From positions 3,364-67,363 of the forward strand of contig JAHWKR010000010.1 of NCBI GenBank assembly GCA_019347805.1: a stretch of DNA of 64,000 nt, in the 5' to 3' direction. A model generated the notes under the pieces. The model made no database searches. It was not told where the DNA came from and was given only the letters and a program-made list of their open reading frames with translations. Made by a program: the position numbers and the translations under genes. Origin of the DNA: Methanobacteriota archaeon (GTDB lineage: Archaea > Thermoplasmatota > E2 > JACPAO01 > JAHWKR01). Shown one piece after another: positions 3,870 through 30,667 of this stretch (the stretch's first letter is position 1; the number at the start of each line of letters is the position of its first letter).

Positions 3870-5177
3870 ATGACGGTCGATCTTGTCGTCGGAGCGCAGT
3901 GGGGCGACGAAGGGAAGGGCAAGATCACGGACGTGCTCTCGGAGCGCGCCGACTACATCGTGCGCTTCCAGGGCGGCAACAACGCCGGCCATACCATCAT
4001 CGTCGGCGACGAGGTGTTCAAGCTGCATCATCTGCCGAGCGGGGTCGTCCGTGGCAAGGTGGCGGTCATCGGCAACGGTTGTGTCGTCGACCCCGAGGTG
4101 CTCCTGAACGAGTTGCATCTCATCATCGAGCGTGGCCGGACGCCTAACCTGATCGTCTCGGACCATGCCCATGTCATCACGCCGGTGCACCGCGCCCTCG
4201 ACGGGGCGCACGAGGCGGCCCGGTCAGACCAGGTGGGGACGACCAAGCGCGGCATCGGCCCGACCTATGCCGACAAGATGACGCGCATCGGGCTGCGTGT
4301 CGGCGACCTGGTGCGCCCGGAGCGGTTGCGCCAGAAAGTCGACAAGCTGGTCGCCCACCACACGAAGACCCTCGAGGTGCTCGGCAGCGACGAGCGCTTC
4401 GACGCCGACACGGTCTACACCGCCTTGAAGACCCAGGGCGAGCGTCTCGAACCCTACATCGCCGATTCCGTGGCGTCCGTCCAGGACGCCTACGAGCAGG
4501 GCCGCCCCATCCTCCTGGAGGGCGCCCAGGGCTGCATGCTCGACATCGATTTCGGCACGTGGCCCTATGTCACCTCGTCGAACACCACAGCAGGTGCGGC
4601 GGCGACCGGCACCGGTCTTCCACCGACCGCGATCGACCGTGTCTTCGGTGTGGTGAAGGCCTACACGACGCGCGTCGGGGCGGGGCCGTTCCCCACTGAA
4701 CTTCCGACCGACTCGGGTCCGGGCAAGCACATGGCGGATGTCGGCCACGAGTTCGGCACGACGACCGGTCGCCCGCGTCGTTGCGGCTGGCTCGACCTTG
4801 TCGTGGTGCGTCACGCGGTCAAGCTCTCGGGCATCACGCATCTGGCGCTCACGAAGCTCGACGTCCTCACCGGCCTGGAGGAGCTGAAGGTCGCGGTCGC
4901 CTATTCGGTCGACGGCACCGAGACGCAGCGCATGCCGAGCGACCCGGATGATTTCGCGCTCGCGGAGCCGGTCTACGAGACGCTCTCGGGGTGGCATAAG
5001 CTGCCACCAGGGGAGCGCCTGCGGACGCGCATGGACCTGCCGCCGGCGGCGCGCGAATACCTCGATTTCGTCGAGGAACAGCTCGGTGTCGGATATGCGG
5101 TCATCGGTGTCGGGCCGAAACGCGCGGAAAGCATCCTTCTCATCGAGGAGCGCACCGCGAAGGCGGTCCAGGGCTGA
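3870..5177 (+). CDS. purA: adenylosuccinate synthetase
   Basis: The C-terminal 435 aa of the 936-aa ORF begin MTVDLVVGAQWGDEGKGKITD (PurA P-loop QWGDEGKGK). Also carries GHTI, TTKRGIGP and TTGRPRRCGWLD motifs. ATG at 3870 is in frame. Confidence 0.93.
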   Translation: MTVDLVVGAQWGDEGKGKITDVLSERADYIVRFQGGNNAGHTIIVGDEVFKLHHLPSGVVRGKVAVIGNGCVVDPEVLLNELHLIIERGRTPNLIVSDHAHVITPVHRALDGAHEAARSDQVGTTKRGIGPTYADKMTRIGLRVGDLVRPERLRQKVDKLVAHHTKTLEVLGSDERFDADTVYTALKTQGERLEPYIADSVASVQDAYEQGRPILLEGAQGCMLDIDFGTWPYVTSSNTTAGAAATGTGLPPTAIDRVFGVVKAYTTRVGAGPFPTELPTDSGPGKHMADVGHEFGTTTGRPRRCGWLDLVVVRHAVKLSGITHLALTKLDVLTGLEELKVAVAYSVDGTETQRMPSDPDDFALAEPVYETLSGWHKLPPGERLRTRMDLPPAAREYLDFVEEQLGVGYAVIGVGPKRAESILLIEERTAKAVQG

Positions 5178-5225
5178 AGCTCGGCCCTTTTCACCACTTT
5201 TTAGCGTCTGCCATTCCGCGTGGGA

Positions 5226-5260
5226 CAAGCGTTTATATGAGACCCACGTGAGGAAGCTCT
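5226..5260 (+). promoter_or_regulatory. TATA-like box (TTTATAT at 5232-5238) about 22 nt upstream of the FKBP ATG
   Basis: Motif cgTTTATATgag lies immediately upstream of the ATG at 5261 and fits an archaeal BRE/TATA promoter with a short leader. Confidence 0.4.
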
Positions 5261-5689
5261 ATGCCCGAAGAAGCCAAGGACGGGGACACGATCGCCGTCA
5301 AATACACGGGAAAACTCCCGGACGGCACCGTCTTCGATTCCAACGAGGGCGCCGACCCCCTCAAGTTCACGGTTGGACAAGGTGAGGTCATCAAGGGTTT
5401 CGACGAGGCCGTGAAGGGCCTCGAGCCCGGCACCAAGACCACGGTCGAGGTGACCCCGGACGAAGCCTACGGTGCGCGCGACGAGGAGCTCGTCATCCCG
5501 GTGAAGACCGAGATCTTCGGCGAGACCGAACCGCAGCCCGGTATGGAGGTCGCGTTGCGCGGACGCGACGGTATGGTGTTCAACGGCCGTGTCACCGAGT
5601 TGAACGGCGACACCGTCAAGGTCGACCTCAACCACCCGCTCGCGGGTCAGACGCTTGTATTCGACATTGAAGTCGTCGGCATCGAGTAG
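5261..5689 (+). CDS. FKBP-type peptidyl-prolyl cis-trans isomerase (SlyD/FkpA-like)
   Basis: 142 aa with an FKBP domain pattern (DGTVFDSNEG...PLKFTVGQGEVIKGFDEAVKGLEPG) followed by an IF/flap-like insert. Confidence 0.85.
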   Translation: MPEEAKDGDTIAVKYTGKLPDGTVFDSNEGADPLKFTVGQGEVIKGFDEAVKGLEPGTKTTVEVTPDEAYGARDEELVIPVKTEIFGETEPQPGMEVALRGRDGMVFNGRVTELNGDTVKVDLNHPLAGQTLVFDIEVVGIE

Positions 5690-7080: not shown

Positions 7081-7153
7081 GGGCTCGTGGTCTAGCGGTC
7101 ATGACGGCGCCCTTACAAGGCGCAGGTCACCGGTTCAAATCCGGTCGAGCCCA
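7081..7153 (+). tRNA. tRNA-Val (anticodon TAC)
   Basis: Cloverleaf can be drawn by hand: acceptor GGGCTCG/CGAGCCC, anticodon stem GCGCC/GGCGC with loop CTTACAA, T-arm ACCGG-TTCAAAT-CCGGT, discriminator A. No encoded CCA. Confidence 0.85.
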
Positions 7154-7410
7154 TTCTACACGCTGCGCCTAACGGCGCAGATGCGTGGTATCTGGTCCCG
7201 ACCGGTGTCGCTCGCTGTCGCTCGCGATCCGGTCGAGCCCATTCTACATGCTGCGCCTAACGGCGCATCTGCGTGGTATCTGGTCCCGACCCGTGTCGCT
7301 CGCTGTCGCTCGCGATCCGGTCGAGCCCATCATACACGCTGCGCCTACTCTCGCGGGTGTCGTGGTCAGCCGGTCCCGACCGGTATCGCTCGCACGAGAG
7401 GATCGGTGAC
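7141..7410 (+). repeat. three tandem ~88-bp units, each beginning with the 3' end of tRNA-Val (atccggtcgagccca)
   Basis: Units at 7141-7228, 7229-7316 and 7317 to about 7400 (the third diverged). Each contains the hairpin ctgcgcctaacggcgcag. The repeated peptides seen in ORFs 7185..7409 and 7273..7491 are translations of this repeat. Confidence 0.8.
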
Positions 7411-7537: not shown

Positions 7538-7610
7538 AGCCCCGTAGTGTAGTGGTCAATCATGGTGGACTCTGGATCCGCCGACAGCGGTTCGAATCCG
7601 CTCGGGGCTA
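7538..7610 (+). tRNA. tRNA-Gln (anticodon CTG)
   Basis: Acceptor AGCCCCG/CGGGGCT, anticodon stem GTGGA/TCCGC with loop CTCTGGA, T-arm AGCGG-TTCGAAT-CCGCT, discriminator A. No encoded CCA. Confidence 0.8.
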
Positions 7611-7750
7611 TGAATCGCCGCCGGAGGCGGCTCTATACCCCCGGCGGCTGTTTCATTCCGGCTCGGGGCTATGGTTCGCGCGAGGGCGCGCTCCATATCC
7701 CCGGCGGCTGCTTCGCTCCGGCTCGGCCCGATTCCTCATGATACCGCACT
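7597..7750 (+). repeat. tandem ~60-bp units repeating the 3' end of tRNA-Gln (tccg(g)ctcggggctatg)
   Basis: Two additional copies of the tRNA 3'-terminal 14-16 nt plus about 45 nt of flank follow the tRNA (a unit starts near 7657 and another near 7717, the latter partial). They appear as the repeated peptide ARG..PYPRRL..SGS in ORF 7552..8148. Confidence 0.7.
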
Positions 7751-13805: not shown

Positions 13806-14663
13806 ATGGACGACGAAGACGATGAGCGGACGCCAGGCCACACGGCGGCGTCCGTGGAAGGACCGCCGCTTTGGAGCGCGTGGCGCGCGCAAGACACGCA
13901 CGGCGCGCCCGGGGCCACGACGGAGACGTTCCCGCTCGGGTTGCCGGTGCTTTCGGGCGCCGACGGGGCACCGGCCGGTACGACCACCCTGCTCGAGGTC
14001 GGCCACATGTGGTCGCTCCTGCGCCACCGCATGGTGCTCGAGGCCTACCACCGCGGGCTTCCGGTCCTCCAGCTCGTCGGCGGCCACCGTCTCGACCCGT
14101 ACGGCCTGGCCCGTGCCGCGCGGGCCGCCGGCGAGGACGCGGAGGAGGTGCTCGGCCACGCGCAGGCGGCACGTGCCTTCACGGTGCATCAACTCTCGGC
14201 GTTCGTCGAGGAGGAGTTGCCGCGTCGTCTCAGCGGACCTGCGCTCGTCGTCCTCTCCGACCCGCTCGCGCTCTACGCCGGTGGCGAGGTGGAAGAGGAG
14301 GAAGGCCGGCGGCTCCTGCGTCGCGCTTTGCGGCGTTTCGTGCGCGCGGTCGCCGCGGCAGGCGCCTATGGTGTCGTCGCCGAGCGGCCGTTCGCGCGTG
14401 ACGACGCCGGTCGTGAGCTCTTGCGTCTGGCACGCCATGTCCAGGTGCGGCCGGCGGACGGCGGCATCGTCGCTGATGTCGTCCACAGCAAACGGCGCCT
14501 GCTGCAACCGACGGCACGGCCGCAGGCGCGCCTGGCCGACTATGGGGTCCAGGACCTCGGCCCCAGCCTGGTCGCGCTCCCGGAACCGGTCGCCACCGTG
14601 CGCGGTCCCCACTTCATGACCGGTCGTGTCGGGCATCTCAAGGTGCTCGCGGAGGGGATCTGA
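13806..14663 (+). CDS. hypothetical protein with a RecA/KaiC-like motif layout but a degenerate P-loop, 285 aa
   Basis: LGLPVLSGADGAPAGTTTLLEVG resembles the RecA-family L-helix plus P-loop but lacks the GKT lysine. ALVVLSDPLALYAGG resembles Walker B (hhhhDS). Its stop overlaps the next ATG (TGATG at 14660-14665). The fold assignment is inferred from motif spacing only. Confidence 0.45.
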   Translation: MDDEDDERTPGHTAASVEGPPLWSAWRAQDTHGAPGATTETFPLGLPVLSGADGAPAGTTTLLEVGHMWSLLRHRMVLEAYHRGLPVLQLVGGHRLDPYGLARAARAAGEDAEEVLGHAQAARAFTVHQLSAFVEEELPRRLSGPALVVLSDPLALYAGGEVEEEEGRRLLRRALRRFVRAVAAAGAYGVVAERPFARDDAGRELLRLARHVQVRPADGGIVADVVHSKRRLLQPTARPQARLADYGVQDLGPSLVALPEPVATVRGPHFMTGRVGHLKVLAEGI

Positions 14664-14986
14664 TGGGCCGCACGTTGCCGACCTTCCGGCGTGTCATCGA
14701 CGAGGAGGAGCGGCGCTGGAACGACCTGCGGCGCGGGCTCGGTCCGGAGGCGCAACGCGCTTTCGACGCGGTCTTCCAGCGCGCGCGGCGTCATGCCAGC
14801 GCGGCGGGCAACCAGGGCGTCGTCGAACCGATGTGGGCCATCATGCTGACGGTGCTCATCGAGAACGAGATGGAGCTGCAACGGCTCCTTGCGCGTGTCG
14901 CCTGGTTGGAGTCGGAGCTGGAGCGCAGGCCGCACAGCGAGACGTTCTATGCACCGGTCGTCGAGGACGAGGGCTGGGCGCCGTGA
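14663..14986 (+). CDS. small alpha-helical hypothetical protein (107 aa)
   Basis: The ORF is bracketed by translational coupling on both sides. Its ATG overlaps the upstream stop. Its TGA overlaps the GTG of the polB-like gene (GTGA at 14983-14986). Confidence 0.45.
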   Translation: MGRTLPTFRRVIDEEERRWNDLRRGLGPEAQRAFDAVFQRARRHASAAGNQGVVEPMWAIMLTVLIENEMELQRLLARVAWLESELERRPHSETFYAPVVEDEGWAP

Positions 14987-17325
14987 GCGCGACCGAGGGG
15001 CATCTCATCGATGTCCACCCGGACGGCCAGGGCCGCATGGTCTCCTGGGTGCGCACGAAAGAAGGTGTCGCACGTTTCGTCGAGCCGTTCGTGCCACGCT
15101 TCCATGTGCATGCGTCCGAGGCGGATCGCCGGCGGCTCACGCGTCGCCTGGCGCACCTGGACGGCCGGCTCGGGCTTTCGACGGTGCGGGCGCGCCTCGG
15201 CCTTGCGCGTGGCAAGACGGAGGTGCTCGAGGTCGCCGTGCCACATCCGCTCGTTCTGCGCGAGGTGGCGCAGGCGGTCGATCGCTGGGGCGAGCATCGC
15301 GCCTACGATCTGTTCGATGTCGACCTGCGCGACAGCCATCGCTATCTCCTTGCCAAGCGGGTGTTCCCGTTCGCGCGCGTGCGTGTCGCCCAAGAGGGCC
15401 GGAACGTGTCGATGGAGGCGTTAGACGGCCAGTGGGACCTGGCGCCGGAACCGCCGATGTTGCGCACGCTGACCTTGTCGGCGGAACTCGATGCCCCGAC
15501 CGGGATCCCGGAAGGCCCGGCCCACCCGGTCCGGCGTGTGCGGCTTGGCGACGAGGAATACCGCGGCGACGAGGTCGCGGTCTTGGAAGGGTTGCGCGAA
15601 GGCCTTCTGCGGCTCGACCCTGACGTGCTCCTCACCCGCTCCGGCGACCGGTTCCTTTTCGGCTATCTGCGGGCGCGGGCGAAGGCCAACGGCATGCGTC
15701 TGCGTTTGGGGCGTGACCCGGACCCGAGAGGCCCGGCACGACGCGGCCGTACGTTCTACACCTATGGCATGGTCAAGTGGCAACCACCGGTGGAGGTCCT
15801 GCATGGACGCATCCATCTCGATGTCGCCTCCAGTTTCTTCCATCGTGAATCCGGTCTTGGCGGTCTCGTGGACCTGTCGCGTATCTCGTCGTGTCCGTTG
15901 CAGGAGCTTGCGCGGCTCGGCCCGGGGACGGCGGTGACGGCGGTGCAGATCGACCGCGCCAAGCGCGAGGAACGGCTGGTCCCGTGGAAGAAGAACCTGC
16001 CGGAGACGATGAAGTCGGAGCGTCGGCTCGTCGAGTCGGACCGTGGCGGTTTCATCCATGACCCGTCGGTGGGGCTCTTCGACGATGTCGTGGAGCTCGA
16101 TTTCTCGTCCATGTACCCGAACATCATGGTGACGCGCAACGTTTCACCCGAGACGGTGGGATGCATCTGTTGTTCGCCGTCGACGCCGGGTGCATCGGTC
16201 GTGCCGCAGGTCGGCTATCTCACCTGTCGGCGCCCGGGGTTCGTGGGGCGTTCCATCAAGCCGCTCGTCGCGCGCCGGGAGTCGTTCAAGCGGCTCATGA
16301 AGAGCGACCCGAAGGACCGGGCGAGATGGCAGGGCGCGTCGGACGCGTTGAAGTGGCTCCTGGTCTGTTCGTTCGGTTACCAGGGGTATCGCAACGCGCG
16401 TTTCGGACGCATCGAATGCCATGAGGCGATCTGTGCCTGGGGTCGGGAGATCCTCTTGACGACCGGCGAGGTGGCGCGCGAGGAGGGCTTCGAGACGTTG
16501 CACGGCATCGTCGACAGCCTGTGGGTCAAGCGTCTTCGCAAGGACGCGGACGCGGAGCGTCTGTCGCGGCGGGTGTCGAAGGAGGTGGGCATCCGGTTCG
16601 ACATCGAGGGGGCGTTCGACTGGATCGTCTTCCTGCCGACGCGGGGGCACGACGCGACGGGGGTCGAAGCGGTAGGGGCCATGAACCGGTTCTACGGCAA
16701 GTTCTCCGAGCCGCCGGCGAAGAAGGCGCGTAGCAACGCGGGCCAGAGTCCGGACCATCTGGCGGGGGGTCAGCTCAAGGTGCGCGGGGTCGAGATGCGG
16801 CAGCGCAGCGCGCCGGGGATCGTGCGTCGGGCGCAGGAGGCGTTCCTTTCCGCGGTCTTTCCGGCAACGGACGCGGCGGGGTTCCGCGCGCTCCTTCCCG
16901 AGGCCATCGAGGCGGTGCGTCCGGTCGTCGAGGAGTTGCGTTCGGGGGCGGTGCCGCTATCCGACCTGTTGGTGCAGAAGACGGTGGGGCAGCCGCTTGC
17001 CGAGTACCGCATGGAGACGGAGACGAAGAGCGCCCTGCGGCTCTTGGCGCAGGCGGGGGTGCAGGTGCCACCGGGCGACGTGGTGCGTTATGTCGTTCTG
17101 GATGGTCGCGCCAAGACGCCGGAGCGGCGGGTCGTCGAGGAGCGGGTGATGACGGGTGACGAGCACTATGATGTCGCGGCGTACGAGACGTTGCTGTTCC
17201 GTTCCCTTGAGAGTCTCTTGTTGCCGTTCGGGTGGGACCTTGCGCGGATGCGCGACCACTTTTCGAATGCGCCGCAGGCGCGTCTGGATCGCTATGGGGT
17301 GGAGGCGGTGCGTGTCAGGTCTTGA
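14983..17325 (+). CDS. family-B DNA polymerase paralog with degenerate catalytic motifs (predicted inactive)
   Basis: Motif A is intact (DFSSMYPNIM). Motif B is recognisable (KWLLVCSFGYQGY). Motif C YGDTDS is replaced by HGIVDS. Exo II FDF is replaced by FLF (LTRSGDRFLFGYL). Exo I is D-V-D (LFDVDL). GTG start at 14983. Confidence 0.75.
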   Translation: MSATEGHLIDVHPDGQGRMVSWVRTKEGVARFVEPFVPRFHVHASEADRRRLTRRLAHLDGRLGLSTVRARLGLARGKTEVLEVAVPHPLVLREVAQAVDRWGEHRAYDLFDVDLRDSHRYLLAKRVFPFARVRVAQEGRNVSMEALDGQWDLAPEPPMLRTLTLSAELDAPTGIPEGPAHPVRRVRLGDEEYRGDEVAVLEGLREGLLRLDPDVLLTRSGDRFLFGYLRARAKANGMRLRLGRDPDPRGPARRGRTFYTYGMVKWQPPVEVLHGRIHLDVASSFFHRESGLGGLVDLSRISSCPLQELARLGPGTAVTAVQIDRAKREERLVPWKKNLPETMKSERRLVESDRGGFIHDPSVGLFDDVVELDFSSMYPNIMVTRNVSPETVGCICCSPSTPGASVVPQVGYLTCRRPGFVGRSIKPLVARRESFKRLMKSDPKDRARWQGASDALKWLLVCSFGYQGYRNARFGRIECHEAICAWGREILLTTGEVAREEGFETLHGIVDSLWVKRLRKDADAERLSRRVSKEVGIRFDIEGAFDWIVFLPTRGHDATGVEAVGAMNRFYGKFSEPPAKKARSNAGQSPDHLAGGQLKVRGVEMRQRSAPGIVRRAQEAFLSAVFPATDAAGFRALLPEAIEAVRPVVEELRSGAVPLSDLLVQKTVGQPLAEYRMETETKSALRLLAQAGVQVPPGDVVRYVVLDGRAKTPERRVVEERVMTGDEHYDVAAYETLLFRSLESLLLPFGWDLARMRDHFSNAPQARLDRYGVEAVRVRS

Positions 17326-19170: not shown

Positions 19171-19448
19171 GCAAGTCTCGGCGGGTTTTTCTCCAAGATG
19201 ATTGACAGCGTCGATGAGGTCGGTTCCAGCCGCAGAAGGCGCTTATCTGTACATCGAGCGATCGATGTGACCCGCGACCGTACAGAGAAGATGCACGACC
19301 ATGTACAACGTCCCGGCGACTCTTTTGTCATGGAACCACACTATAACATGGCCGCCCCACCACGAACAGAGCAGAACAAAGCTCAAGTACTCAGACCTGA
19401 CCTCCTCCGCCGGGTGGTCCGAGAGGCCGCCTTTGAGAGGTATCTGAT

Positions 19449-20072
19449 ATGAACAAAGTCTTCATCGCAGCGGCCCTTGCCCTCGCTCTTGCGGGTGGCG
19501 CGGTCGCGACCGGAGCTCAGCAGAACACGAACTACGTGACCGCCGGCTACGCCGCGACGGGCATCTGGTGCAAGGATGGCGGCCACAACTACGCGCCGAT
19601 CGGCGACCCGGGCGACTACGGTTCCGAATTGGCCTGGCTCTTCTCGGGCGAGCCCGAGTGCCTCCCCGGTGACGTCGCCTTCGGCACCGAGGACGACCAC
19701 GCCTGGATGGCCGCTGCCCTCTGCGTCGCCGGCGAGATCAACGGCGAGGACTGCGGCGACCACCGCACCCACGACCTTCTTGTGACCTCCAACGACGCCA
19801 TCGGCACGCCCCACCTCTTCATCAGCGCAGAGACCTGCGACGGGACGGAAGAGGGCGACTGCACCACCCAGAACAACAAGGGTGAGAATGTCGTCGCAGA
19901 AGGCTGCGGCGCCTCCGGCCTCCCGATCCCGGCCGACATGCCCCGCCACTGGCAGAGTCCGGCCGACGCGCCGACCTACCTCATCTGGACCTTCATCGAC
20001 GGCGCGTTCGTCGATGAGACCAGCGGCGCCATCTGCCTCGGCAGCACCGGCACCATCACCGCCGACTTCTAG
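19449..20072 (+). CDS. secreted Cys-rich protein, paralog 1 of a three-member tandem family
   Basis: Signal peptide MNKVFIAAALALALAGGAVATGAQ. Conserved block GGHNYAPIGDPGDY...WLFSGEPECLPGD..FG.EDDH...CVAGEING.DCGDHRTH. SD-like GAGAGG upstream. Confidence 0.7.
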   Translation: MNKVFIAAALALALAGGAVATGAQQNTNYVTAGYAATGIWCKDGGHNYAPIGDPGDYGSELAWLFSGEPECLPGDVAFGTEDDHAWMAAALCVAGEINGEDCGDHRTHDLLVTSNDAIGTPHLFISAETCDGTEEGDCTTQNNKGENVVAEGCGASGLPIPADMPRHWQSPADAPTYLIWTFIDGAFVDETSGAICLGSTGTITADF

Positions 20073-20094
20073 GTGCAAGGCCGGTCTCTCTTCC

Positions 20095-20115
20095 CTCTTC
20101 TCCCATTTTTTTTGG
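20095..20115 (+). terminator. oligo-T tract (T8 at 20106-20113) downstream of paralog 1
   Basis: The sequence cccattttttttgg about 35 nt after the stop resembles an archaeal intrinsic terminator. Confidence 0.3.
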
Positions 20116-20318
20116 AGGAAGCGCTTTTGACGATGTTTATCTTTCTACATCGTTGCATGCCTCCTTCCGTCGGCGACTCACCCCAGGTGTACTCATGTGA
20201 ATATTTGGCAAGTCATAGAGTGTCATTTCTGCTATGTCGAGACAAGGCTCAAATAAGGACAACCCGTTCCGCCGGCATGGTGGCTTCTCTGAGGTCACCG
20301 AAATTGGAGGTATCGAAA

Positions 20319-20939
20319 ATGAACAAGATCTTCATCGCTGCGGTACTCGCCCTCGCTCTCGCGGGCGGCGCCATCGCTTCTGGAGCAAGTCAGAACACCA
20401 GCTATGTGGCCAAGAACCCCCCGCTCACCATCTGGTGTGGCGCCGGCGGCCACAACTACGCCCCTATCGGCGACCCGGGCGACTACGACGACGAGCTCTC
20501 CTGGCTCTTCTCGGGCGAGCCCGAGTGCCTCCCCGGTGACGCCCTCTTCGGCATCGAGGACGACCACGGCTGGGGCGGCGCCGCTTTCTGCGTCGCCGGT
20601 GAGATCAACGGCAACGACTGCGGCGACCACCGCACCCACGAGCTCCTCGCCGCCACGAACGACGCGTTCGGCAGCCCCCTGGTCAAACTCTCGGCCGAGA
20701 TCTGCCCGGCCGAGCTCCCGGACTGCACCACCCAGCAGAACGAAGCCGACGACGTCGTGACCGCAGAGGGCTGCGGTACCGCCGGCTTCACCATCCCGGC
20801 CGACATGGCCCGCCACTGGCAGAGCCCGAGTGACAACCCGACCTACCTTGTGTGGGCCTTCGTCCACGGTGCTCACGTCGACCAGACCTCCGGTGCCGTC
20901 TGCCTCGGTACCCAGGGCATCATCACCGGCGACTGGTAG
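20319..20939 (+). CDS. secreted Cys-rich protein, paralog 2
   Basis: MNKIFIAAVLALALAGGAIASGASQ is about 65% identical to paralog 1 over its full length. GGAGG lies 9 nt upstream of the ATG at 20319. Confidence 0.75.
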   Translation: MNKIFIAAVLALALAGGAIASGASQNTSYVAKNPPLTIWCGAGGHNYAPIGDPGDYDDELSWLFSGEPECLPGDALFGIEDDHGWGGAAFCVAGEINGNDCGDHRTHELLAATNDAFGSPLVKLSAEICPAELPDCTTQQNEADDVVTAEGCGTAGFTIPADMARHWQSPSDNPTYLVWAFVHGAHVDQTSGAVCLGTQGIITGDW

Positions 20940-21098
20940 ACCAAAAATCGGCCCTTCTCTTCCCTTCTTCTCCACTCTCTGTTTTCTCGACCCGACCGCA
21001 TAGGGCGGATCCTGTTGTCTCGCAACTCGCACGCGCCGACCGGACATGGCGCCCACAAACCCCTTCAACGCTCTGGGCCTTCGACACCTGGTGAATCC

Positions 21099-21722
21099 GT
21101 GTCGGTGCCCTTGCGTCATCCGCTGACCACCCTCGTATTGACAGTGTCGATCATGGTCCCGGCGACGATCGCCCATGACCCACCCACCGAGACGACCGGC
21201 CACTATGTGGCGTGGCAGGTGCCGGGCCTCATCGCTTGTGCCGCAGGAGAATATCCCGCCGTGCCACAGGGAGACCCCGATGACCATTCCAGCCCGCTCA
21301 CGTGGCTCTTTTCGGGCGAACCGGAATGCCTACCCGGGTCCGTCCTCTTTGGCAAAGAGAACGACCATGGTTGGGGGGGCAGTGTCTTCTGTGTCGCAGG
21401 CGAGTGGAAGGGACGGGACTGCGGCGACCATGTCGGGCACACGATCCGCATCACCGCTGACGATGCTGTCCCCGACGCCAAGCCCCCGCTCCTGCTCTAT
21501 CTTGTCGGAGAGGACGCGGACGGCCGAGCTATCGACATCACGGTCGAAGGATGCGGGACTGTGGAGGGTGTCATCCCGGTACCGGAGGCCCCACACTTCC
21601 CGCCCGACCCGGACGTGCCACAGGCGTACCTCGTGTGGGTGAAGGTCGCCAACGTGCAGGTCGATGCGACGACGACGGAGATCTGCATCGGGACCACCGG
21701 CGTGATCACAGGGGCCTACTGA
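21099..21722 (+). CDS. secreted Cys-rich protein, paralog 3 (diverged)
   Basis: Shares the LTWLFSGEPECLPGSVLFGKENDHGWGGSVFCVAGEWKGRDCGDHVGH core. The N-terminal hydrophobic segment LTTLVLTVSIMVPATIAHD is reached from GTG 21099. The start is uncertain. Confidence 0.55.
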   Translation: MSVPLRHPLTTLVLTVSIMVPATIAHDPPTETTGHYVAWQVPGLIACAAGEYPAVPQGDPDDHSSPLTWLFSGEPECLPGSVLFGKENDHGWGGSVFCVAGEWKGRDCGDHVGHTIRITADDAVPDAKPPLLLYLVGEDADGRAIDITVEGCGTVEGVIPVPEAPHFPPDPDVPQAYLVWVKVANVQVDATTTEICIGTTGVITGAY

Positions 21723-22100
21723 TGCGTCTGGTCGCTTTTCGGCGTCAGCTCCCTCCAGCCGCGATGCTAAGGGAATCCGAACGAAAGTCCCTCACGACTC
21801 CGGCGTGAGCTTTCTCCAGATCTTCCTCGGAGCCTGCGACGAGGAGGGTCTGGGGCAAGTTCGCGCGAATCTATGATTTGCGCGTCAACTTGCGCCAGCT
21901 GCGCAGCTACTGGAAAGCGAACGCAAATCCCTCAGGACTTGCCCGTGAGCTTTCGCCAGGTCTTCCTCGGAGCCTGCGACGAGGAGGGTCTGGCGGGACT
22001 CGCGGAAGGCTACGCCTTCCGCGTCAGTTTCCGCCAGCTGCGCAGCTACTGGAAAGCGAGCGCAAGTCCCTCAGGACTTGCCCGTGAGCTTTCGCCAGAT
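21723..22100. repeat. three tandem ~130-135 bp intergenic repeats containing nested hairpins
   Basis: Unit core ctggaaagcgaGcgcaaGtccctcaggacttgcccgtgagctttcgccagRtcttcctcggagcctgcgacgaggagggtctgg is present three times. It contains the hairpin gcaagtcc-ctca-ggacttgc inside an outer gaaagc...gctttc stem. ORFs 21873..23480 and 21878..22087 are translations of these repeats. Confidence 0.7.
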
Positions 22101-22823
22101 CATACGCAGCGGGTCGTAGTACCGGTCCGACATCCGTTCCTTGAGCGGGATGATGCCGTTGTCGGTGATGACGATGTTCTCGGGGCACACCTCGGTGCAG
22201 CATCGGGTGATGTTGCAGTGGCCGACGCCGGAGGTCTCCTTGACGTAGGGGATGCGATCGGCGTCGTCCTTGGGGTGCATCTCGAGTTCCGCCAATCGGA
22301 TCATGTAGCGCGGCCCGTCGAAGACCTCTTTGTTCTCGGGGAAATCACGCAGGACGTGGCAGACGTTCTGGCACAGGAAGCATTCGATGCATTTCCGGAA
22401 CTCCTGCACCCGGTCGATGTCCTCCTGCTTCATGTTGAACTCGCCCTTCTTCGCCTCTTCGGGCGTGTAGGTCTTGGGCGTGAACGGCGTGATGCGCTTC
22501 TTGACGCGGTAGTTCCAGGAGACGTCGGTGACGAGGTCCTTCTGGAGCGGGAAGGTCTTCACGGGTCCGACGCGGATGGGGCCGTCGGGGAGGGTGTCCA
22601 TCCGGGTCATGCAGGTGAGCTTGGCCTTGCCGTTGATCTCGGCGCTGCACGAGCCGCACTTGCCGGCCTTGCAGTTCCAGCGGCAGGCGAGGTCGGTGGC
22701 CTGTTCGGCCTGGATGCGGTGGATGGCGTCGAGGACGACCATGCCTTCCTGTTGTTCGACCTCGTAATCCTCGTAGCGGCCGTTCTCTTTCGTGCCGCGG
22801 AAGATGGTGAGCGTGCGCTTCAA
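22071..22823 (-). CDS. sdhB: succinate dehydrogenase/fumarate reductase iron-sulfur subunit
   Basis: 2Fe-2S and 4Fe-4S cysteine clusters (CRWNCKAGKCGSCSAEING, CIECFLCQNVC, CNITRCCTEVCP). TTG start at 22823 overlaps the sdhA stop (TTGA). The ORF-track extension beyond it was rejected. Confidence 0.85.
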   Translation of the reverse strand: MKRTLTIFRGTKENGRYEDYEVEQQEGMVVLDAIHRIQAEQATDLACRWNCKAGKCGSCSAEINGKAKLTCMTRMDTLPDGPIRVGPVKTFPLQKDLVTDVSWNYRVKKRITPFTPKTYTPEEAKKGEFNMKQEDIDRVQEFRKCIECFLCQNVCHVLRDFPENKEVFDGPRYMIRLAELEMHPKDDADRIPYVKETSGVGHCNITRCCTEVCPENIVITDNGIIPLKERMSDRYYDPLRMIWRKLTGKS

Positions 22824-26562: not shown

Positions 26563-27495
26563 TCATTGCGGTTCCATCTCGGCCTCGGCCTCTTCGGCCT
26601 CGGTGTCGACCGCCCTCGGATAGCTGCCGAGGACCTTGAGGAACGACAGTTTGCCCACCAGCTGGCCGAGGGCAGCGGCGACGTCGGGTTCGGCGGCGTG
26701 TCCGTCGCAGTCGGCGAAGAAGTGATAGGACCAGCGGCGGCCGGGCCTGCGCCGTGGGCGTGATTCCAGTTTGGTGAGGTTGACGTCGTTGGCGGCGAAC
26801 GCACCGAGGGCGTTGTAGAGGGCACCGGGTTCGTGGCGTGTCGAGAAGACGAGGGAGGTCTTGTAGCCGGGGCCGTTCGGTGGCAGGCGCGACAGGTCGG
26901 GTGTGGGGTGGAGGTCGTCATGGGAGACGACGATGAAGCGCGTGTAGTTATCGGGGCCGGACTCGATCCCTTCGGCGAGGATGTCGAGGTCGTAGTGGTC
27001 GGCGGCGAGGCGTGAGGCGATGGCGGCGTGTCCGGGTTCGGCCTGTTCGGACACCGAGCGTGCGGCTCCGGCGGTGTCGTATTCGGCGACCTTGTGCACA
27101 TTCGGATGGCTTTCGAGGAAGGTGCGGCATTGGCGCAGGCCTTGCGGATGGCTGTGGACGTGGGTGATCTCATCCAGCTTCGTGCCGCGCGGTGCGAGGA
27201 GGCAGTGTCGGACATGCACTTCGACCTCGCCGACGACGTGCAGGTCGAGTTCGGGGAGGAGGTCCGTCGCTTCGTCGATGTTGCCTTCGAGGGTGTTCTC
27301 GACAGGGAGCAGGCCGACGCGGGCGGAGCCGTCGACGACGGCCGAGACGACGCGGGCGAACGTGGCGCAAGGGAGGCCTTCGTAGTGGGCGTCGGAGGTC
27401 ATCTTTCGCCAGAGGGGTTCGGCCTTGAAGTGCCGGATGGCGGCCATTTCGGAATAGGCACCGGGTTCTCCCTGATAGGCGTAGACGAGGGCCAC
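26563..27495 (-). CDS. pheA: prephenate dehydratase with C-terminal ACT domain
   Basis: PDT N-terminus VALVYAYQGEPGAYSE, the TRF motif (YTRFIVV) and a C-terminal ACT region. GTG start at 27495 is chosen because no in-frame ATG precedes the conserved N-terminus. Confidence 0.8.
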   Translation of the reverse strand: MALVYAYQGEPGAYSEMAAIRHFKAEPLWRKMTSDAHYEGLPCATFARVVSAVVDGSARVGLLPVENTLEGNIDEATDLLPELDLHVVGEVEVHVRHCLLAPRGTKLDEITHVHSHPQGLRQCRTFLESHPNVHKVAEYDTAGAARSVSEQAEPGHAAIASRLAADHYDLDILAEGIESGPDNYTRFIVVSHDDLHPTPDLSRLPPNGPGYKTSLVFSTRHEPGALYNALGAFAANDVNLTKLESRPRRRPGRRWSYHFFADCDGHAAEPDVAAALGQLVGKLSFLKVLGSYPRAVDTEAEEAEAEMEPQ

Positions 27496-27643
27496 ACTTC
27501 GCCGAGGCGGGTGTGACGTATGGCTTTGTCGGAGGGTCGCGTCGTCCGGTGTGCCGGTGTCACCATGGCTTCTGGTCTCTTTGTGCGTCCAGGGCCGTCC
27601 GAGCCACTCGAGGGTCTCTTGGACGATGACCCACCCGGCCCGC

Positions 27644-30600
27644 CTAGAGCCAGGCGTCCAGGCCCTTCTGTTCGACCGTCGAAAGGTCGTCGAAGCCGAA
27701 GGCGCCTTTGATGTAATTGTCCAGCATGTCCTTGTACCAGTCGAGGTCGAGGCGATAGCCGCGGTCCTCCCACTTCGGGAGCACCTCGACCGGCCACATG
27801 AACTCGATCGGCTTGATCCCCGGCTTCTTCTTGCCCGAACCTTCCAGGCCAGGCAAGGGGCGATTGGCGACGACGAAGCGGAACTTGCGCGTCGCCCGGA
27901 GCCCCGTCTCGTCACCGCTCTGCTTGAGCAGTTGGTCGAGCGCCTCGGCGCGCTTGGCGAACGTCGACAAGGAACCGTCGGGATTCCGCTTGTAGCGCCG
28001 CGCCGGCTGGACGCTCTGGATGAGCACCAGTTCGGCGGGGTCGACGGTGGCGATGCGCATCTTGGCGATGACCTCGTTGGCCGCCTTCTTGATGCTCGCC
28101 TTGAGGCTCGCCCGCGCCTGCTCCTCGGTCTCCCACACCAGGTTCTCCCCCATGGCCCGCTCCATCACCCGGGCGAGCACGTTGCGCGCGAGGTCCGCCT
28201 TGTCGCTGCCCTTGAAGTTGTTCCCCTTGACCTCCATCTGCAACCGGCCACCGTGGGCGTCGAACATGAGGTAGTTCTTGTGCACCACGAAGACCATGGC
28301 GTCGTGGATCTCCGGTTCCAGCTCGAACTCTTCGTAGCGCAGCTCGTCGCGGAAGCGGCGGTTCAGGGCGTCGACCGCCTCGATGGCCTGTTCCGGTGTC
28401 GTCATCCAACCCGACGGATCGGCAAGACCATGGGCGTCGAAGACATCGGCGACGCGGTCGATGTTGGCGCCGTTTCGACCGCACGCGAGATAGATGCCGT
28501 CGGTGTCGCCGTAGACGACGCGGATCTTGCGCTTGTCGAGGTCCCTGCGCGATTCGTGCAGGATGCGTTGTCCCTCCGTGGTGATGCGGGCGCCGGCGAG
28601 GACGTTGAACTGGCGGCACGACACATTGTCGGCGACGAGGATGCCGTGCGTCCCGGCGTTGCGTGCCGCCTTCAGGCTGGCATAGTTGAGCCGGAGCCGC
28701 GCGACATCATGCTCTGAGATGCCGGAATCCGGCTTCTTCGCTTCGTTCATGGCGTGCTTGACCTTGGCGATCATGCCGAGGATGGCGCTCATGCCGAGGT
28801 TCACGACACCGGGGCCGTCGCGCTGGCGCACCCCGATGAGCACGCCTTTGTCGGCGAAATCCTCGTCGCTCCCGGGGCTCCGGACGGCGTAGCGGCCCGA
28901 ATCGATGAGCCGAGGGCTCGCCCGCTTCAGCCACACCCAGGCGTCCGGGTCCTCGCCGGCGTGGGCCAGCCGGATCGTGTCGGCGCCGACGTTCAGGGCC
29001 TTCAGGATGGTGGGATACATCGCCCCCACGTCGGCGGCGACGACATGCCACCACGGGATGAACTCGCTCTTGAGGTCCTGCGGATGGAGCGTGAGACCCC
29101 CCGGAAGATCGTAGCCTTCCTTGCCGCCCTCGCGGTCGAGGTCGTGGACGAGATGCGGATAGGAGAGCCATTCGGGCATCTCGTCGCCATACTTCGCGAC
29201 GCGGACGAGCTCCCTGTGGCTCCCGGTGCGCCCTTCTGCGCCGATGCCGCGGGCGTACTCGGCGATCTGCTCGGGGGTCGGCTCGTCGGCGATCTCGCGC
29301 TGCACGAGTCCCGCCAGTCCGGCGGCGCGGCAGGTGGCGGGCATGAGGCGTTTTCGGTGGGCGGCACGGATGAGGCCGATGTGGTCCCACATCTTGGTGT
29401 TCATGCCCATGAACAGCTGTTCGAAGGTCATGCCTGTGGAGAACGCGAGCGGCAACGCCTGGATGACGAGGTGCATCGAGACGCCGAGCTGTTCGCGCAC
29501 GTCGTGTTCGTGGTAGCGCAACGTGCGCGGGTCGTCGAGGGCGAGGTCCTGTGCGGTGACATGCTCCCGTCCGTCGATCTCGACGCCCAAAAACGGCGCG
29601 AGCCCCTTGAGGGTCAGGTCATCGCGGAAGAAATAGAAACGGCGGGCGGCAAGGAACGTGTCGAGGCTCGCCGGATGCAGGATGGCCATGTCGTCGGGGC
29701 GGCCGAACTGGTACGACTTGTCCTTCCAGCACCAGGTCGAAAGGAACTCGGTGAAGACCTGGTCGACGCTGCGTTCGAGGCTGCCGTTCTTGCGGCCCCG
29801 TTCCTGCAGTTTCTTGACCCGTTCGTGGATCTTCAGATTGTCGAAGCCGAGGATGTTGTGGCCCGAGACGATGCCGGTGCTACGCACGGTCGTGGCGAAG
29901 CGCGCCAGCATATCGATCTCCTCGTCGACGTTGCGGGCCACCTCCTGGACGATCTCGGGCTCCCACCAGTCGTGCGGGGCGTGGTGGATGTCGAAGTCGA
30001 AGTCCTCCGTCTCGAGGTCGACCTTGGCGGAATAGGAGACCGGGAAGCGGGCGTGGCCGAGCATGTCGATCGGCAGGTCGTCCTCGCGCACGCCGACGTT
30101 GCCGTATTGCGTCGTCTCGATGTCGAACACCATCACATCGAGCGTCGTCGGCCGGCCTCCCGTCGCGAACGGCCAGTGGCCCCTGGCGGCCATGTCGACG
30201 GCGAAACGTTGCTGGTACGGCACGTCATGCTCGGCGGTGTAGGCGCCGAAGCGGTCGAAGAGCGCGTCCGAGACACGCGGCACGACGCCGGGGTGGCGGG
30301 TGAAGACCCGGAAACCGTCGCGCGTCCGGTCGTGCCAGAACGATTCCACCGTCTCGACGGGACCCAGTTCGGTGACGAGTCCGAGCGGGTCGCGTTCGTG
30401 CTGCTCGCCGCCGTTGCCTTCGGTCGACCGGCTCGCCTCGTCCACCGCCCGCAGCACGCTCCGTCGGAGCCCCTTGGTGTCCTTGCCGAGCGGGGCGTAA
30501 GCCCAGAAGTAGGGCTTGTGCAGTTCACCGACCGGCACCGGGTCGCGCCCCTTGAAGAAGGCGTGCGTGTTCGAGACGGAGAGGAGGACGTCCTCCATGG

Positions 30601-30667
30601 GCGGTCCTGGCGAGGTGGGGGGAGCGTAAAAGGTGCGCGGGGTGATGTCGTGTGGAGCGCGGTCCAT
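27644..30667 (-). CDS. polB: family-B DNA polymerase (catalytically intact, presumed replicative)
   Basis: 1007 aa. Exo I FDIETT. Exo II HNILGFDNLKI (FD retained). Motif A DVGAMYPTIL. Motif C VVYGDTDGIYL. No intein-like blocks seen. Confidence 0.9.
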   Translation of the reverse strand: MDRAPHDITPRTFYAPPTSPGPPMEDVLLSVSNTHAFFKGRDPVPVGELHKPYFWAYAPLGKDTKGLRRSVLRAVDEASRSTEGNGGEQHERDPLGLVTELGPVETVESFWHDRTRDGFRVFTRHPGVVPRVSDALFDRFGAYTAEHDVPYQQRFAVDMAARGHWPFATGGRPTTLDVMVFDIETTQYGNVGVREDDLPIDMLGHARFPVSYSAKVDLETEDFDFDIHHAPHDWWEPEIVQEVARNVDEEIDMLARFATTVRSTGIVSGHNILGFDNLKIHERVKKLQERGRKNGSLERSVDQVFTEFLSTWCWKDKSYQFGRPDDMAILHPASLDTFLAARRFYFFRDDLTLKGLAPFLGVEIDGREHVTAQDLALDDPRTLRYHEHDVREQLGVSMHLVIQALPLAFSTGMTFEQLFMGMNTKMWDHIGLIRAAHRKRLMPATCRAAGLAGLVQREIADEPTPEQIAEYARGIGAEGRTGSHRELVRVAKYGDEMPEWLSYPHLVHDLDREGGKEGYDLPGGLTLHPQDLKSEFIPWWHVVAADVGAMYPTILKALNVGADTIRLAHAGEDPDAWVWLKRASPRLIDSGRYAVRSPGSDEDFADKGVLIGVRQRDGPGVVNLGMSAILGMIAKVKHAMNEAKKPDSGISEHDVARLRLNYASLKAARNAGTHGILVADNVSCRQFNVLAGARITTEGQRILHESRRDLDKRKIRVVYGDTDGIYLACGRNGANIDRVADVFDAHGLADPSGWMTTPEQAIEAVDALNRRFRDELRYEEFELEPEIHDAMVFVVHKNYLMFDAHGGRLQMEVKGNNFKGSDKADLARNVLARVMERAMGENLVWETEEQARASLKASIKKAANEVIAKMRIATVDPAELVLIQSVQPARRYKRNPDGSLSTFAKRAEALDQLLKQSGDETGLRATRKFRFVVANRPLPGLEGSGKKKPGIKPIEFMWPVEVLPKWEDRGYRLDLDWYKDMLDNYIKGAFGFDDLSTVEQKGLDAWL

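Follow-up and report, generated by a model that had tools for sequence, protein, structure and literature searches.

The 64,000-nucleotide (nt) stretch of archaeal DNA analyzed here, hereafter the window, carries three consecutive plus-strand genes at positions 19449-21722, with open reading frames (ORFs) of 207, 206 and 205 amino acids. The three genes are real and native and belong to one rare protein family, and the tandem triplication of exported, cysteine-containing paralogs that had been predicted from the sequence alone (the original prediction) is genuine. We tentatively read the product as an extracellular, non-catalytic module that serves in binding or in the envelope, is restricted to one lineage (probably Thermoplasmatota) and evolves by tandem birth and death, a view of its function that draws on the sequences and on a structure model. 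What we describe is a family that is new in sequence and generic in its β-sandwich architecture, not a surprising system.

Paralog 1 (P1, 19449-20072) encodes 207 residues and is identical to protein KY455_04490 (P0002) of the NCBI metagenome-assembled genome (MAG). Paralog 2 (P2, 20319-20939) encodes 206 residues from an ATG start and served as the reference copy for the structure model; its longest ORF, from GTG 20073, is a mere in-frame upstream extension. Paralog 3 (P3, 21105-21722) encodes 205 residues from GTG 21105, most likely the true start judging from sequence comparison. The alternatives are TTG 21015, which opens the longest ORF, and ATG 21153, used in the 189-residue NCBI model (KY455_04500, P0004). 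GTG 21105 is best supported because the ortholog in L003, an independent contig among the related loci that we fetched, begins at the equivalent GTG (P0005/L003_2), and because the start region and its GGTGA Shine-Dalgarno (SD)-like site are conserved there. The deposited P3 model appears to be 16 codons short and thereby to lack its signal peptide. P3 had been described as diverged with an altered N-terminus; its signal peptide does differ, but it has not been lost, being regained from GTG 21105 and conserved in the L003 ortholog.

The translations contain the motif blocks originally quoted and have Cys at the conserved positions. P1 and P2 are indeed a related pair, at a measured 69% identity instead of the ~65% first estimated, and P3 is 40% and 45% identical to P1 and P2, respectively. 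A hidden Markov model (HMM) of the family, built from an alignment that includes the window copies, matches P1, P2 and P3 at 1.4e-62, 2.8e-68 and 1.7e-60; overall, scores of 1e-60 to 1e-68 place membership far beyond chance. The notion that these genes are artefacts, either non-coding ORFs in GC-rich DNA or duplications created by assembly, draws on the many spurious ORFs that occupy both strands of the window, but it is already refuted and retains practically no probability. The GC content at third codon positions is 0.77-0.89 (0.889 in P1), and the codon-position pattern resembles that of the neighboring genes sdhA, aldo-keto reductase (AKR), rhodanese and family-B DNA polymerase (PolB), unlike that of the antisense ORFs, which lack the pattern of real genes. 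Homologs are under purifying selection in independent metagenomes, and L003 carries a 91% identical ortholog of P2. Assembly duplication, which the original prediction had named as a way in which it could fail, is excluded because the copies, only 40-69% identical, are too diverged.

No match to the family was found in Pfam, NCBIfam, PHROG or PADLOC with single proteins or profiles. In Pfam and NCBIfam, a sub-threshold LPAM_1 hit and isolated chance matches among 29 members were all that appeared, and PDB sequences gave 0 matches even at E<=10 (phmmer and hmmsearch, with profiles of 7 and 29 sequences). Together with the Foldseek searches described below, these results bear out the earlier statement that no characterized domain can be assigned. 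A word-indexed search of 5.8 billion proteins returned 6 relatives, and 1.84 billion cluster representatives, searched exhaustively with an HMMER profile, yielded 25 matches, ~24 of them genuine; P0028, among the 25, is a spurious repeat protein. Genuine members are ~190-260 residues long, begin with an N-terminal hydrophobic signal, come from metagenomes, on short contigs with a GC content of 61-68%, and are annotated only as hypothetical protein. A scan of JGI metagenomes added one further short contig. Two scans of 185,579 GTDB species genomes with different patterns yielded no member, and neither did IMG/VR viral contigs, phages or plasmids (the last two by tblastn); a literature search for similar secreted proteins of Thermoplasmatota found none. 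Judging from these sequences, the family is probably restricted to a GC-rich Thermoplasmatota clade, a placement made because the nearest named relatives of the SdhA encoded in the window, at ~70% identity, are from Thermoplasmatota MAGs. This SdhA is 100% identical to a protein on the contig that encodes KY455_04490. The residues conserved throughout the family are, in P2 numbering (used below unless stated), Y29, C40, P49, P53, W62, S65-G66-E67-P68-E69-C70 (SGEPEC), D115, G151-C152-G153 (in an EGCG motif), P160, W167, W179, C195 and G200.

Export is indicated by a tripartite Sec-type signal peptide, recognized by inspection in P1, P2, P3 and all family members as a charged n-region, a hydrophobic h-region of 12-18 residues and small residues at -3/-1. 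In P1 (residues ~1-23, 19449-19517) and P2 (residues ~1-23, 20319-20387), it reads MNK, IFIAAVLALALAGGAIA and SGA, with the cut placed before SQ. The P3 peptide, MPLRHPLTTLVLTVSIMVPATIA (21105-21173), consists of MPLRH and PLTTLVLTVSIMVPATIA and would be cleaved before HD. The sequence of the N-terminal hydrophobic segment is weakly conserved, and the segment forms a low-confidence helix in the AlphaFold model. A lipobox Cys was not found; the LPAM_1 hit scores 17.7 bits, below the cut-off of 20, and no Cys precedes residue 40, 41 or 45, where the first one stands. Nor do the N-termini fit a class III (type IV pilin-like) signal peptide, as the hydrophobic segment comes right after Met-Asn-Lys with an AxA-like site behind it. 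The mature part is modeled as a β-sandwich and not as the N-terminal helix of type IV pilin-like proteins, and its C-terminal strand, modeled with a predicted local distance difference test (pLDDT) score of 97, closes with an aromatic residue that is conserved.

P1 and P2 each contain eight Cys, at residues 41, 71, 92, 102, 130, 138, 153 and 196 of P1 and 40, 70, 91, 101, 129, 136, 152 and 195 of P2. P3 has six and lacks the Cys129-Cys136 loop. Four (C40, C70, C152 and C195) are family-wide, the clade of the window adds C91/C101, and P1 and P2 further add C129/C136. Across the alignment the extra Cys are gained and lost in pairs, which fits two core disulfides with one or two extra; the core disulfides are probably C40-C70 and C152-C195. 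The mature proteins are very acidic, with an isoelectric point (pI) of 4.05-4.2 and 27-29 Asp+Glu versus 4-7 Lys+Arg. The pI is low because Lys+Arg are scarce (only 2-4%) while Asp+Glu stay at an ordinary level of ~15%. A halophilic 'salt-in' proteome was considered as the cause of the acidity and rejected, since neighboring proteins have a pI of 5.7-9.5.

AlphaFold gave a pLDDT of 62.5 with 7 sequences, too poor for use. With the alignment of 29 sequences, the P2 model reached a pLDDT of 89.8 and a predicted template modeling score of 0.82. It predicts ~13 strands and two short helices (residues 59-63 and 68-77): behind the low-confidence helix of the signal peptide, strand 24-30 would open the mature chain, and a β-sandwich of ~10 strands would reach the C-terminus. 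Foldseek of this model, one of the checks proposed with the original prediction, found no significant neighbor in PDB or BFVD. Nothing appeared at E<=1e-3, the best E-values were 0.015-0.046, and the best template modeling (TM) scores were 0.26 (query-normalized) and 0.39 (target-normalized), short of the E<=1e-3 and TM>=0.5 at which we would assign membership. The weak list holds plant-virus and picornavirus capsids, a TNF-family ligand, a C1q domain, CBM11, meprin, the pilin Ena and the lysozyme inhibitor PliG. According to the model, the fold class is jelly-roll-like, with no membership that can be claimed.

The spacers are more AT-rich than the window as a whole and an SD-like site is read before each of the three starts, as originally described. 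Spacer 1 (20073-20318, plus strand, 246 bp) has 49.2% GC and spacer 2 (20940-21104, plus strand, 165 bp) 59.4%, against 67.3% for the window; the region upstream of P1 (19171-19448, plus strand, 278 bp), downstream of the AKR gene, has 55.8%. The identity of the AKR gene was assigned by synteny with L007, another of the fetched loci. The SD-like sites, all on the plus strand and 7-10 nt ahead of the starts, are GAGAGGT (19435-19441) before P1, GGAGGT (20306-20311) before P2 and GGTGA (21090-21094) before P3, the last 10 nt upstream of GTG 21105. Spacer 1 also contains a 33-nt block holding AAATAAGG (20229-20261, plus strand) that is 100% conserved in L003, whereas the ~40 nt after it vary between the two loci. 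The block is a candidate archaeal promoter, judged by its sequence and conservation. Behind the stops of P1, P2 and most homologs lies a CT-rich tract with an oligo-T run. The P1 tract, which includes T8 (20081-20113, plus strand), is a likely terminator, and that of P2 in spacer 2 (20948-20988, plus strand) is nearly identical in L003. We considered this element as family-specific and rejected the idea, as similar tracts trail unrelated genes of the window; it is probably the general terminator of the lineage. The promoter-like block, conserved in L003, together with the SD sites and the terminator tracts indicates, at the level of sequence, that the window genes are separately transcribed and efficiently translated. 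The locus has no match in Rfam or to a tRNA.

Family members whose proteins share only ~37% identity have a nearly identical leader, TTGGAGGTATCGAAA-ATG. Extended to TTGGAGGTATCGAAA-ATG-AAC-AAG (20306-20324 in the window), the leader is almost invariant in the homologs of L001, L003, L004, L007 and L012, at ~30-40% protein identity. By sequence comparison, the translation-initiation region is conserved far better than the protein across the family.

The presence and copy number of the genes in related genomes were likewise to be checked, and adjacency proved to be a recurrent feature. An HMM scan of the fetched loci found two or three adjacent same-strand copies in 8 of 11: three in the window and in L005, and two each in L001, L002, L003, L004, L006 and L007. 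L008, L012 and L013 have single copies. Each of P0016 and P0017 comes from a 1,544-bp JGI contig, and the two contigs may be identical. The genes are 1 nt apart in L005, and the pair in L006 overlaps by 4 nt. L007 has the order PolB fragment, rhodanese, AKR, two family copies and EndoV. Beyond the family copies, L002 runs into the 3' end of sdhB and L003 into a copy of the sdhB-adjacent repeat, an arrangement found in the window too. The two overlapping L006 copies (4289-5544) are located between PolB2 and PDT (prephenate dehydratase)/tmk in a related organism. The counterpart PolB2/PDT junction of the window (~27495-27647) is empty, so the family relocates within an otherwise syntenic region.

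At sdhB in a related Thermoplasmatota MAG (GCA_054606395.1), the locus L011 encodes an unrelated exported, Cys-rich, acidic protein of 248 residues (4225-4971, minus strand) that converges on sdhB. It was considered as a remote homolog and rejected (hmmsearch E=0.39, hhalign probability 0.4%), as was a 178-residue protein after sdhB in L009 and L010, which is unrelated. The L011 protein implies that different orphan secreted proteins occupy the same neighborhood.

The family diverges much faster than its syntenic neighbors. Between L007 and the window, PolB, rhodanese and AKR are 70%, 64% and 68% identical, against 31-38% for the family copies. In a neighbor-joining tree, P1 and P2 form a recent pair, L003_1 is the ortholog of P2, and P3 with L003_2 forms an older lineage. 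The pairs of L001, L004 and L007 cluster by locus, whereas the three L005 copies and P3 of the window do not. This tree reflects duplications both old and recent, or concerted evolution. The alignment of window 20319-21722 with L003 91-1492 is a mosaic: identity is 95-98% over the initial 300 nt of P2, 75-93% over the 3' part of P2 and ~58-87% over spacer 2 with P3. Synonymous divergence between the two loci is three times as high in P3 as in P2. This mosaic divergence hints that the array has recombined. A recent conversion event between the P1 and P2 genes, which we considered, is not supported: P1 is equidistant from the window P2 and its L003 ortholog in every 60-nt segment.

The original prediction took the tandem expansion to suggest diversifying selection and called for estimates of the ratio of nonsynonymous to synonymous substitution rates (dN/dS) among the three copies. 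By the Nei-Gojobori method, the window paralogs give 0.44-0.53 (0.44 for P1 and P2), the orthologs 0.28 (P2 and L003_1) and 0.29 (P3 and L003_2), and other pairs 0.37-0.73. No pair has a gene-wide dN/dS >1 (range 0.28-0.73), so diversifying selection finds no gene-wide support. Windows of 30 residues approach 1 only in short segments, notably residues 181-206. The fast evolution and the repeated duplication and relocation are real, in favor of that earlier view. The family turns over through duplication in tandem, through loss and through relocation, and the purifying selection on it is relaxed.

In the reading that we prefer, each gene would be expressed from its own AT-rich upstream region with a strong SD site, P1 and P2 each being closed by a CT-rich/oligo-T terminator. 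The product would be exported via Sec, and the ~23-residue signal peptide removed between GA and SQ or between IA and HD. Outside the cell it may fold into a compact, jelly-roll-like β-sandwich of ~180 residues, stapled by the two family-wide disulfides (C40-C70 and C152-C195), to which one or two clade-specific ones (C91-C101 and C129-C136) would be added. The end product would be very acidic (pI ~4), poor in Lys and Arg, robust and devoid of a membrane anchor, and it might act as a non-catalytic binding or envelope-associated module. The paralogs differ chiefly in loops and in the C-terminal strand, which could give them different specificities or let them act jointly. If this holds, the family would be a well-bounded portion of the 'dark matter' of archaea: exported, with a confident yet unmatched fold, confined to an uncultured Thermoplasmatota-like clade and evolving several times faster than its neighbors. 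Such families are likely carriers of lineage-specific envelope biology and of cell-environment interactions in archaea, about which, to our knowledge, little is known. The gains are a corrected P3 gene model, an alignment and profile fit for an entry of the domain-of-unknown-function (DUF) type, and a small disulfide-stabilized target that should be easily expressed and solved. These practical gains are limited, and the family alone answers no long-standing question.

Several points weigh against this interpretation. The function has no homology-based or experimental backing, and a role at the cell surface or in interactions is something we infer. The signal peptides were recognized by eye instead of with a trained predictor. 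No transmembrane segment, lipobox or PGF-CTERM/C-terminal sorting signal was found in the mature proteins, which makes surface attachment hypothetical. No partner gene recurs across the fetched loci. The Foldseek targets were PDB and BFVD, and a match among predicted cellular structures could still exist. In addition, the conserved E67, E69, D115, H45 and H166 could equally form a metal or active site.

The rival explanations fall in plausibility from a hetero-oligomeric assembly through an antagonistic or defensive effector and a metal binder to an enzyme. The paralogs may be subunits of one extracellular hetero-oligomer or polymer (a fibre, a sheath or an S-layer accessory) in which adjacent, diverged copies co-assemble, like jelly-roll subunits encoded in tandem in other systems. 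At least two diverged adjacent copies do occur in 8 of the 11 loci, and the 4-nt overlap in L006 and the 1-nt gap in L005 suggest translational coupling. The strong, highly conserved ribosome-binding site fits an abundant product, and jelly-roll-like folds often oligomerize, with the Ena pilin, the TNF-family ligand, C1q and capsids all in the weak Foldseek list. We nevertheless regard such an assembly as unlikely: single-copy loci exist (L008, L012 and L013), the genes of the window are separated by long spacers and carry promoters and terminators of their own, and none of the structural matches is significant (TM <=0.39). The copies of L001 and L004 are each nearest to the partner in their own locus, which speaks against fixed ancient subunit roles. 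A more ambitious version, in which the family represents a new fold class whose tandem, disulfide-stapled, acid-resistant subunits co-assemble into a novel type of archaeal extracellular structure (a fibre or coat, for instance) in a Thermoplasmatota clade that is poorly sampled, and in which paralog turnover tunes the surface against viruses or competitors, is a speculative long shot. Alternatively, the proteins may be secreted for antagonism or defense, as inhibitors of foreign hydrolases, virus decoys or competitor-directed effectors engaged in an arms race. Divergence far above that of the flanking genes, recurrent duplication and relocation, the mosaic divergence between the window and L003 (95-98% identity in the 5' 300 nt of P2, 70-90% in its 3' part and in P3), and a dN/dS near 1 in the C-terminal ~25 residues would all agree with this, and the top Foldseek probabilities include PliG and a fungal effector, both non-significant. 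Against it stand the gene-wide dN/dS of 0.28-0.44, the lack of a PADLOC or PHROG match and of any occurrence in viral contigs or phages, and flanks made of housekeeping genes with no linkage to defense or mobile genes, and we consider it somewhat less likely than an assembly.

The composition and the conserved residues have suggested two further roles. Extracellular binding of metals or other cations, for sequestration, scavenging or buffering, could rely on the carboxylate surface (27-29 Asp+Glu versus 4-7 Lys+Arg, pI ~4) and on His clusters; E67, E69, D115 and H45 are conserved, and in the clade of the window a His-rich loop, CGDHRTH, occurs along with EDDH and HGAH. Most of the His are clade-specific and not family-wide, however, no known metal-binding family is matched in Pfam or NCBIfam, and no transporter or resistance genes lie nearby, which leaves this role doubtful, slightly more so than the antagonistic one. 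A small secreted enzyme, a jelly-roll glycoside hydrolase or lyase with E67 and E69 as catalytic carboxylates, is very improbable. Many secreted hydrolases of ~20 kDa are β-jelly rolls, the invariant SGEPEC holds two Glu, and D115 is conserved. But there is no similarity to enzyme fold families in Pfam, PDB or Foldseek, the model puts SGEPEC at the start of a loop or helix and not on a cleft strand, and fast loop turnover is atypical of enzymes.

Comparison with known systems yields general likenesses. Generic jelly-roll modules such as viral capsids, TNF/C1q-like, MATH and CBM11 domains share with our model a mostly antiparallel β-sandwich of ~180 residues. None is linked to it by E<=1e-3, TM scores above 0.26/0.39 or sequence similarity, and the two-helix N-terminal sub-region and the disulfide pattern are peculiar to the family of the window. 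Ena pilins of Bacillus endospore appendages (DUF3992, PDB 7a02) are likewise small, exported jelly rolls with disulfides, and they are encoded by adjacent paralogous genes. In our search 7a02 ranks 14 and is a weak match (E=0.14, TM 0.21/0.32). The window proteins have no DUF3992 match in Pfam and no Cys within the first 16 mature residues, that is, no N-terminal Cys connector. Ena is bacterial and spore-specific, and there is no evidence of polymerization in the family of the window. The periplasmic lysozyme inhibitor PliG (PDB 4dzg) is also a small exported β-sandwich and has the top Foldseek probability, 0.63. This match has E=0.1, TM 0.25/0.39 and a root-mean-square deviation of 6.6 Å, with no sequence similarity, and PliG acts in the bacterial periplasm, whereas an archaeon has no obvious lysozyme target. 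Uncurated secreted families of archaeal MAGs are similarly 'hypothetical', narrow in clade and known only from metagenomes. The present family differs from them in being delimited, with ~24 representatives, a fold model, a Cys core, a tandem organization and a rate contrast.

The surroundings of the array offer some minor observations. Two PolB genes (14626-17325, plus strand, and 27644-30667, minus strand) lie within 13 kb of each other, and each has a ~70% identical ortholog on a separate contig of sample SRR34348050 (L007 and L006). Between P3 and sdhB is a 140-bp tandem repeat (21738-22101, 2.6 copies, 82% match) with units at ~21723-21862, 21863-22001 and 22002-22140. The final unit holds the true 3' end of sdhB (minus strand, stop 22071), while each of the other units carries a degenerate version of the final ~30 nt of sdhB with the DNA downstream of it, and each unit contains two palindromes. 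At least one unit is present in L003, and the repeat has no Rfam or tRNA match. In a similar manner, tRNA-Val (7081-7153) is followed by an 88-bp repeat (2.9 copies, 7139-7393) and tRNA-Gln (7538-7610) by a 60-bp repeat (2.1 copies, 7600-7726), both beginning inside the 3' end of the tRNA. The 3' end of a gene with its downstream DNA is reiterated in tandem in three instances in 64 kb (sdhB, tRNA-Val and tRNA-Gln), which could be the remnant of an integration site or the result of a lineage-specific slippage process.

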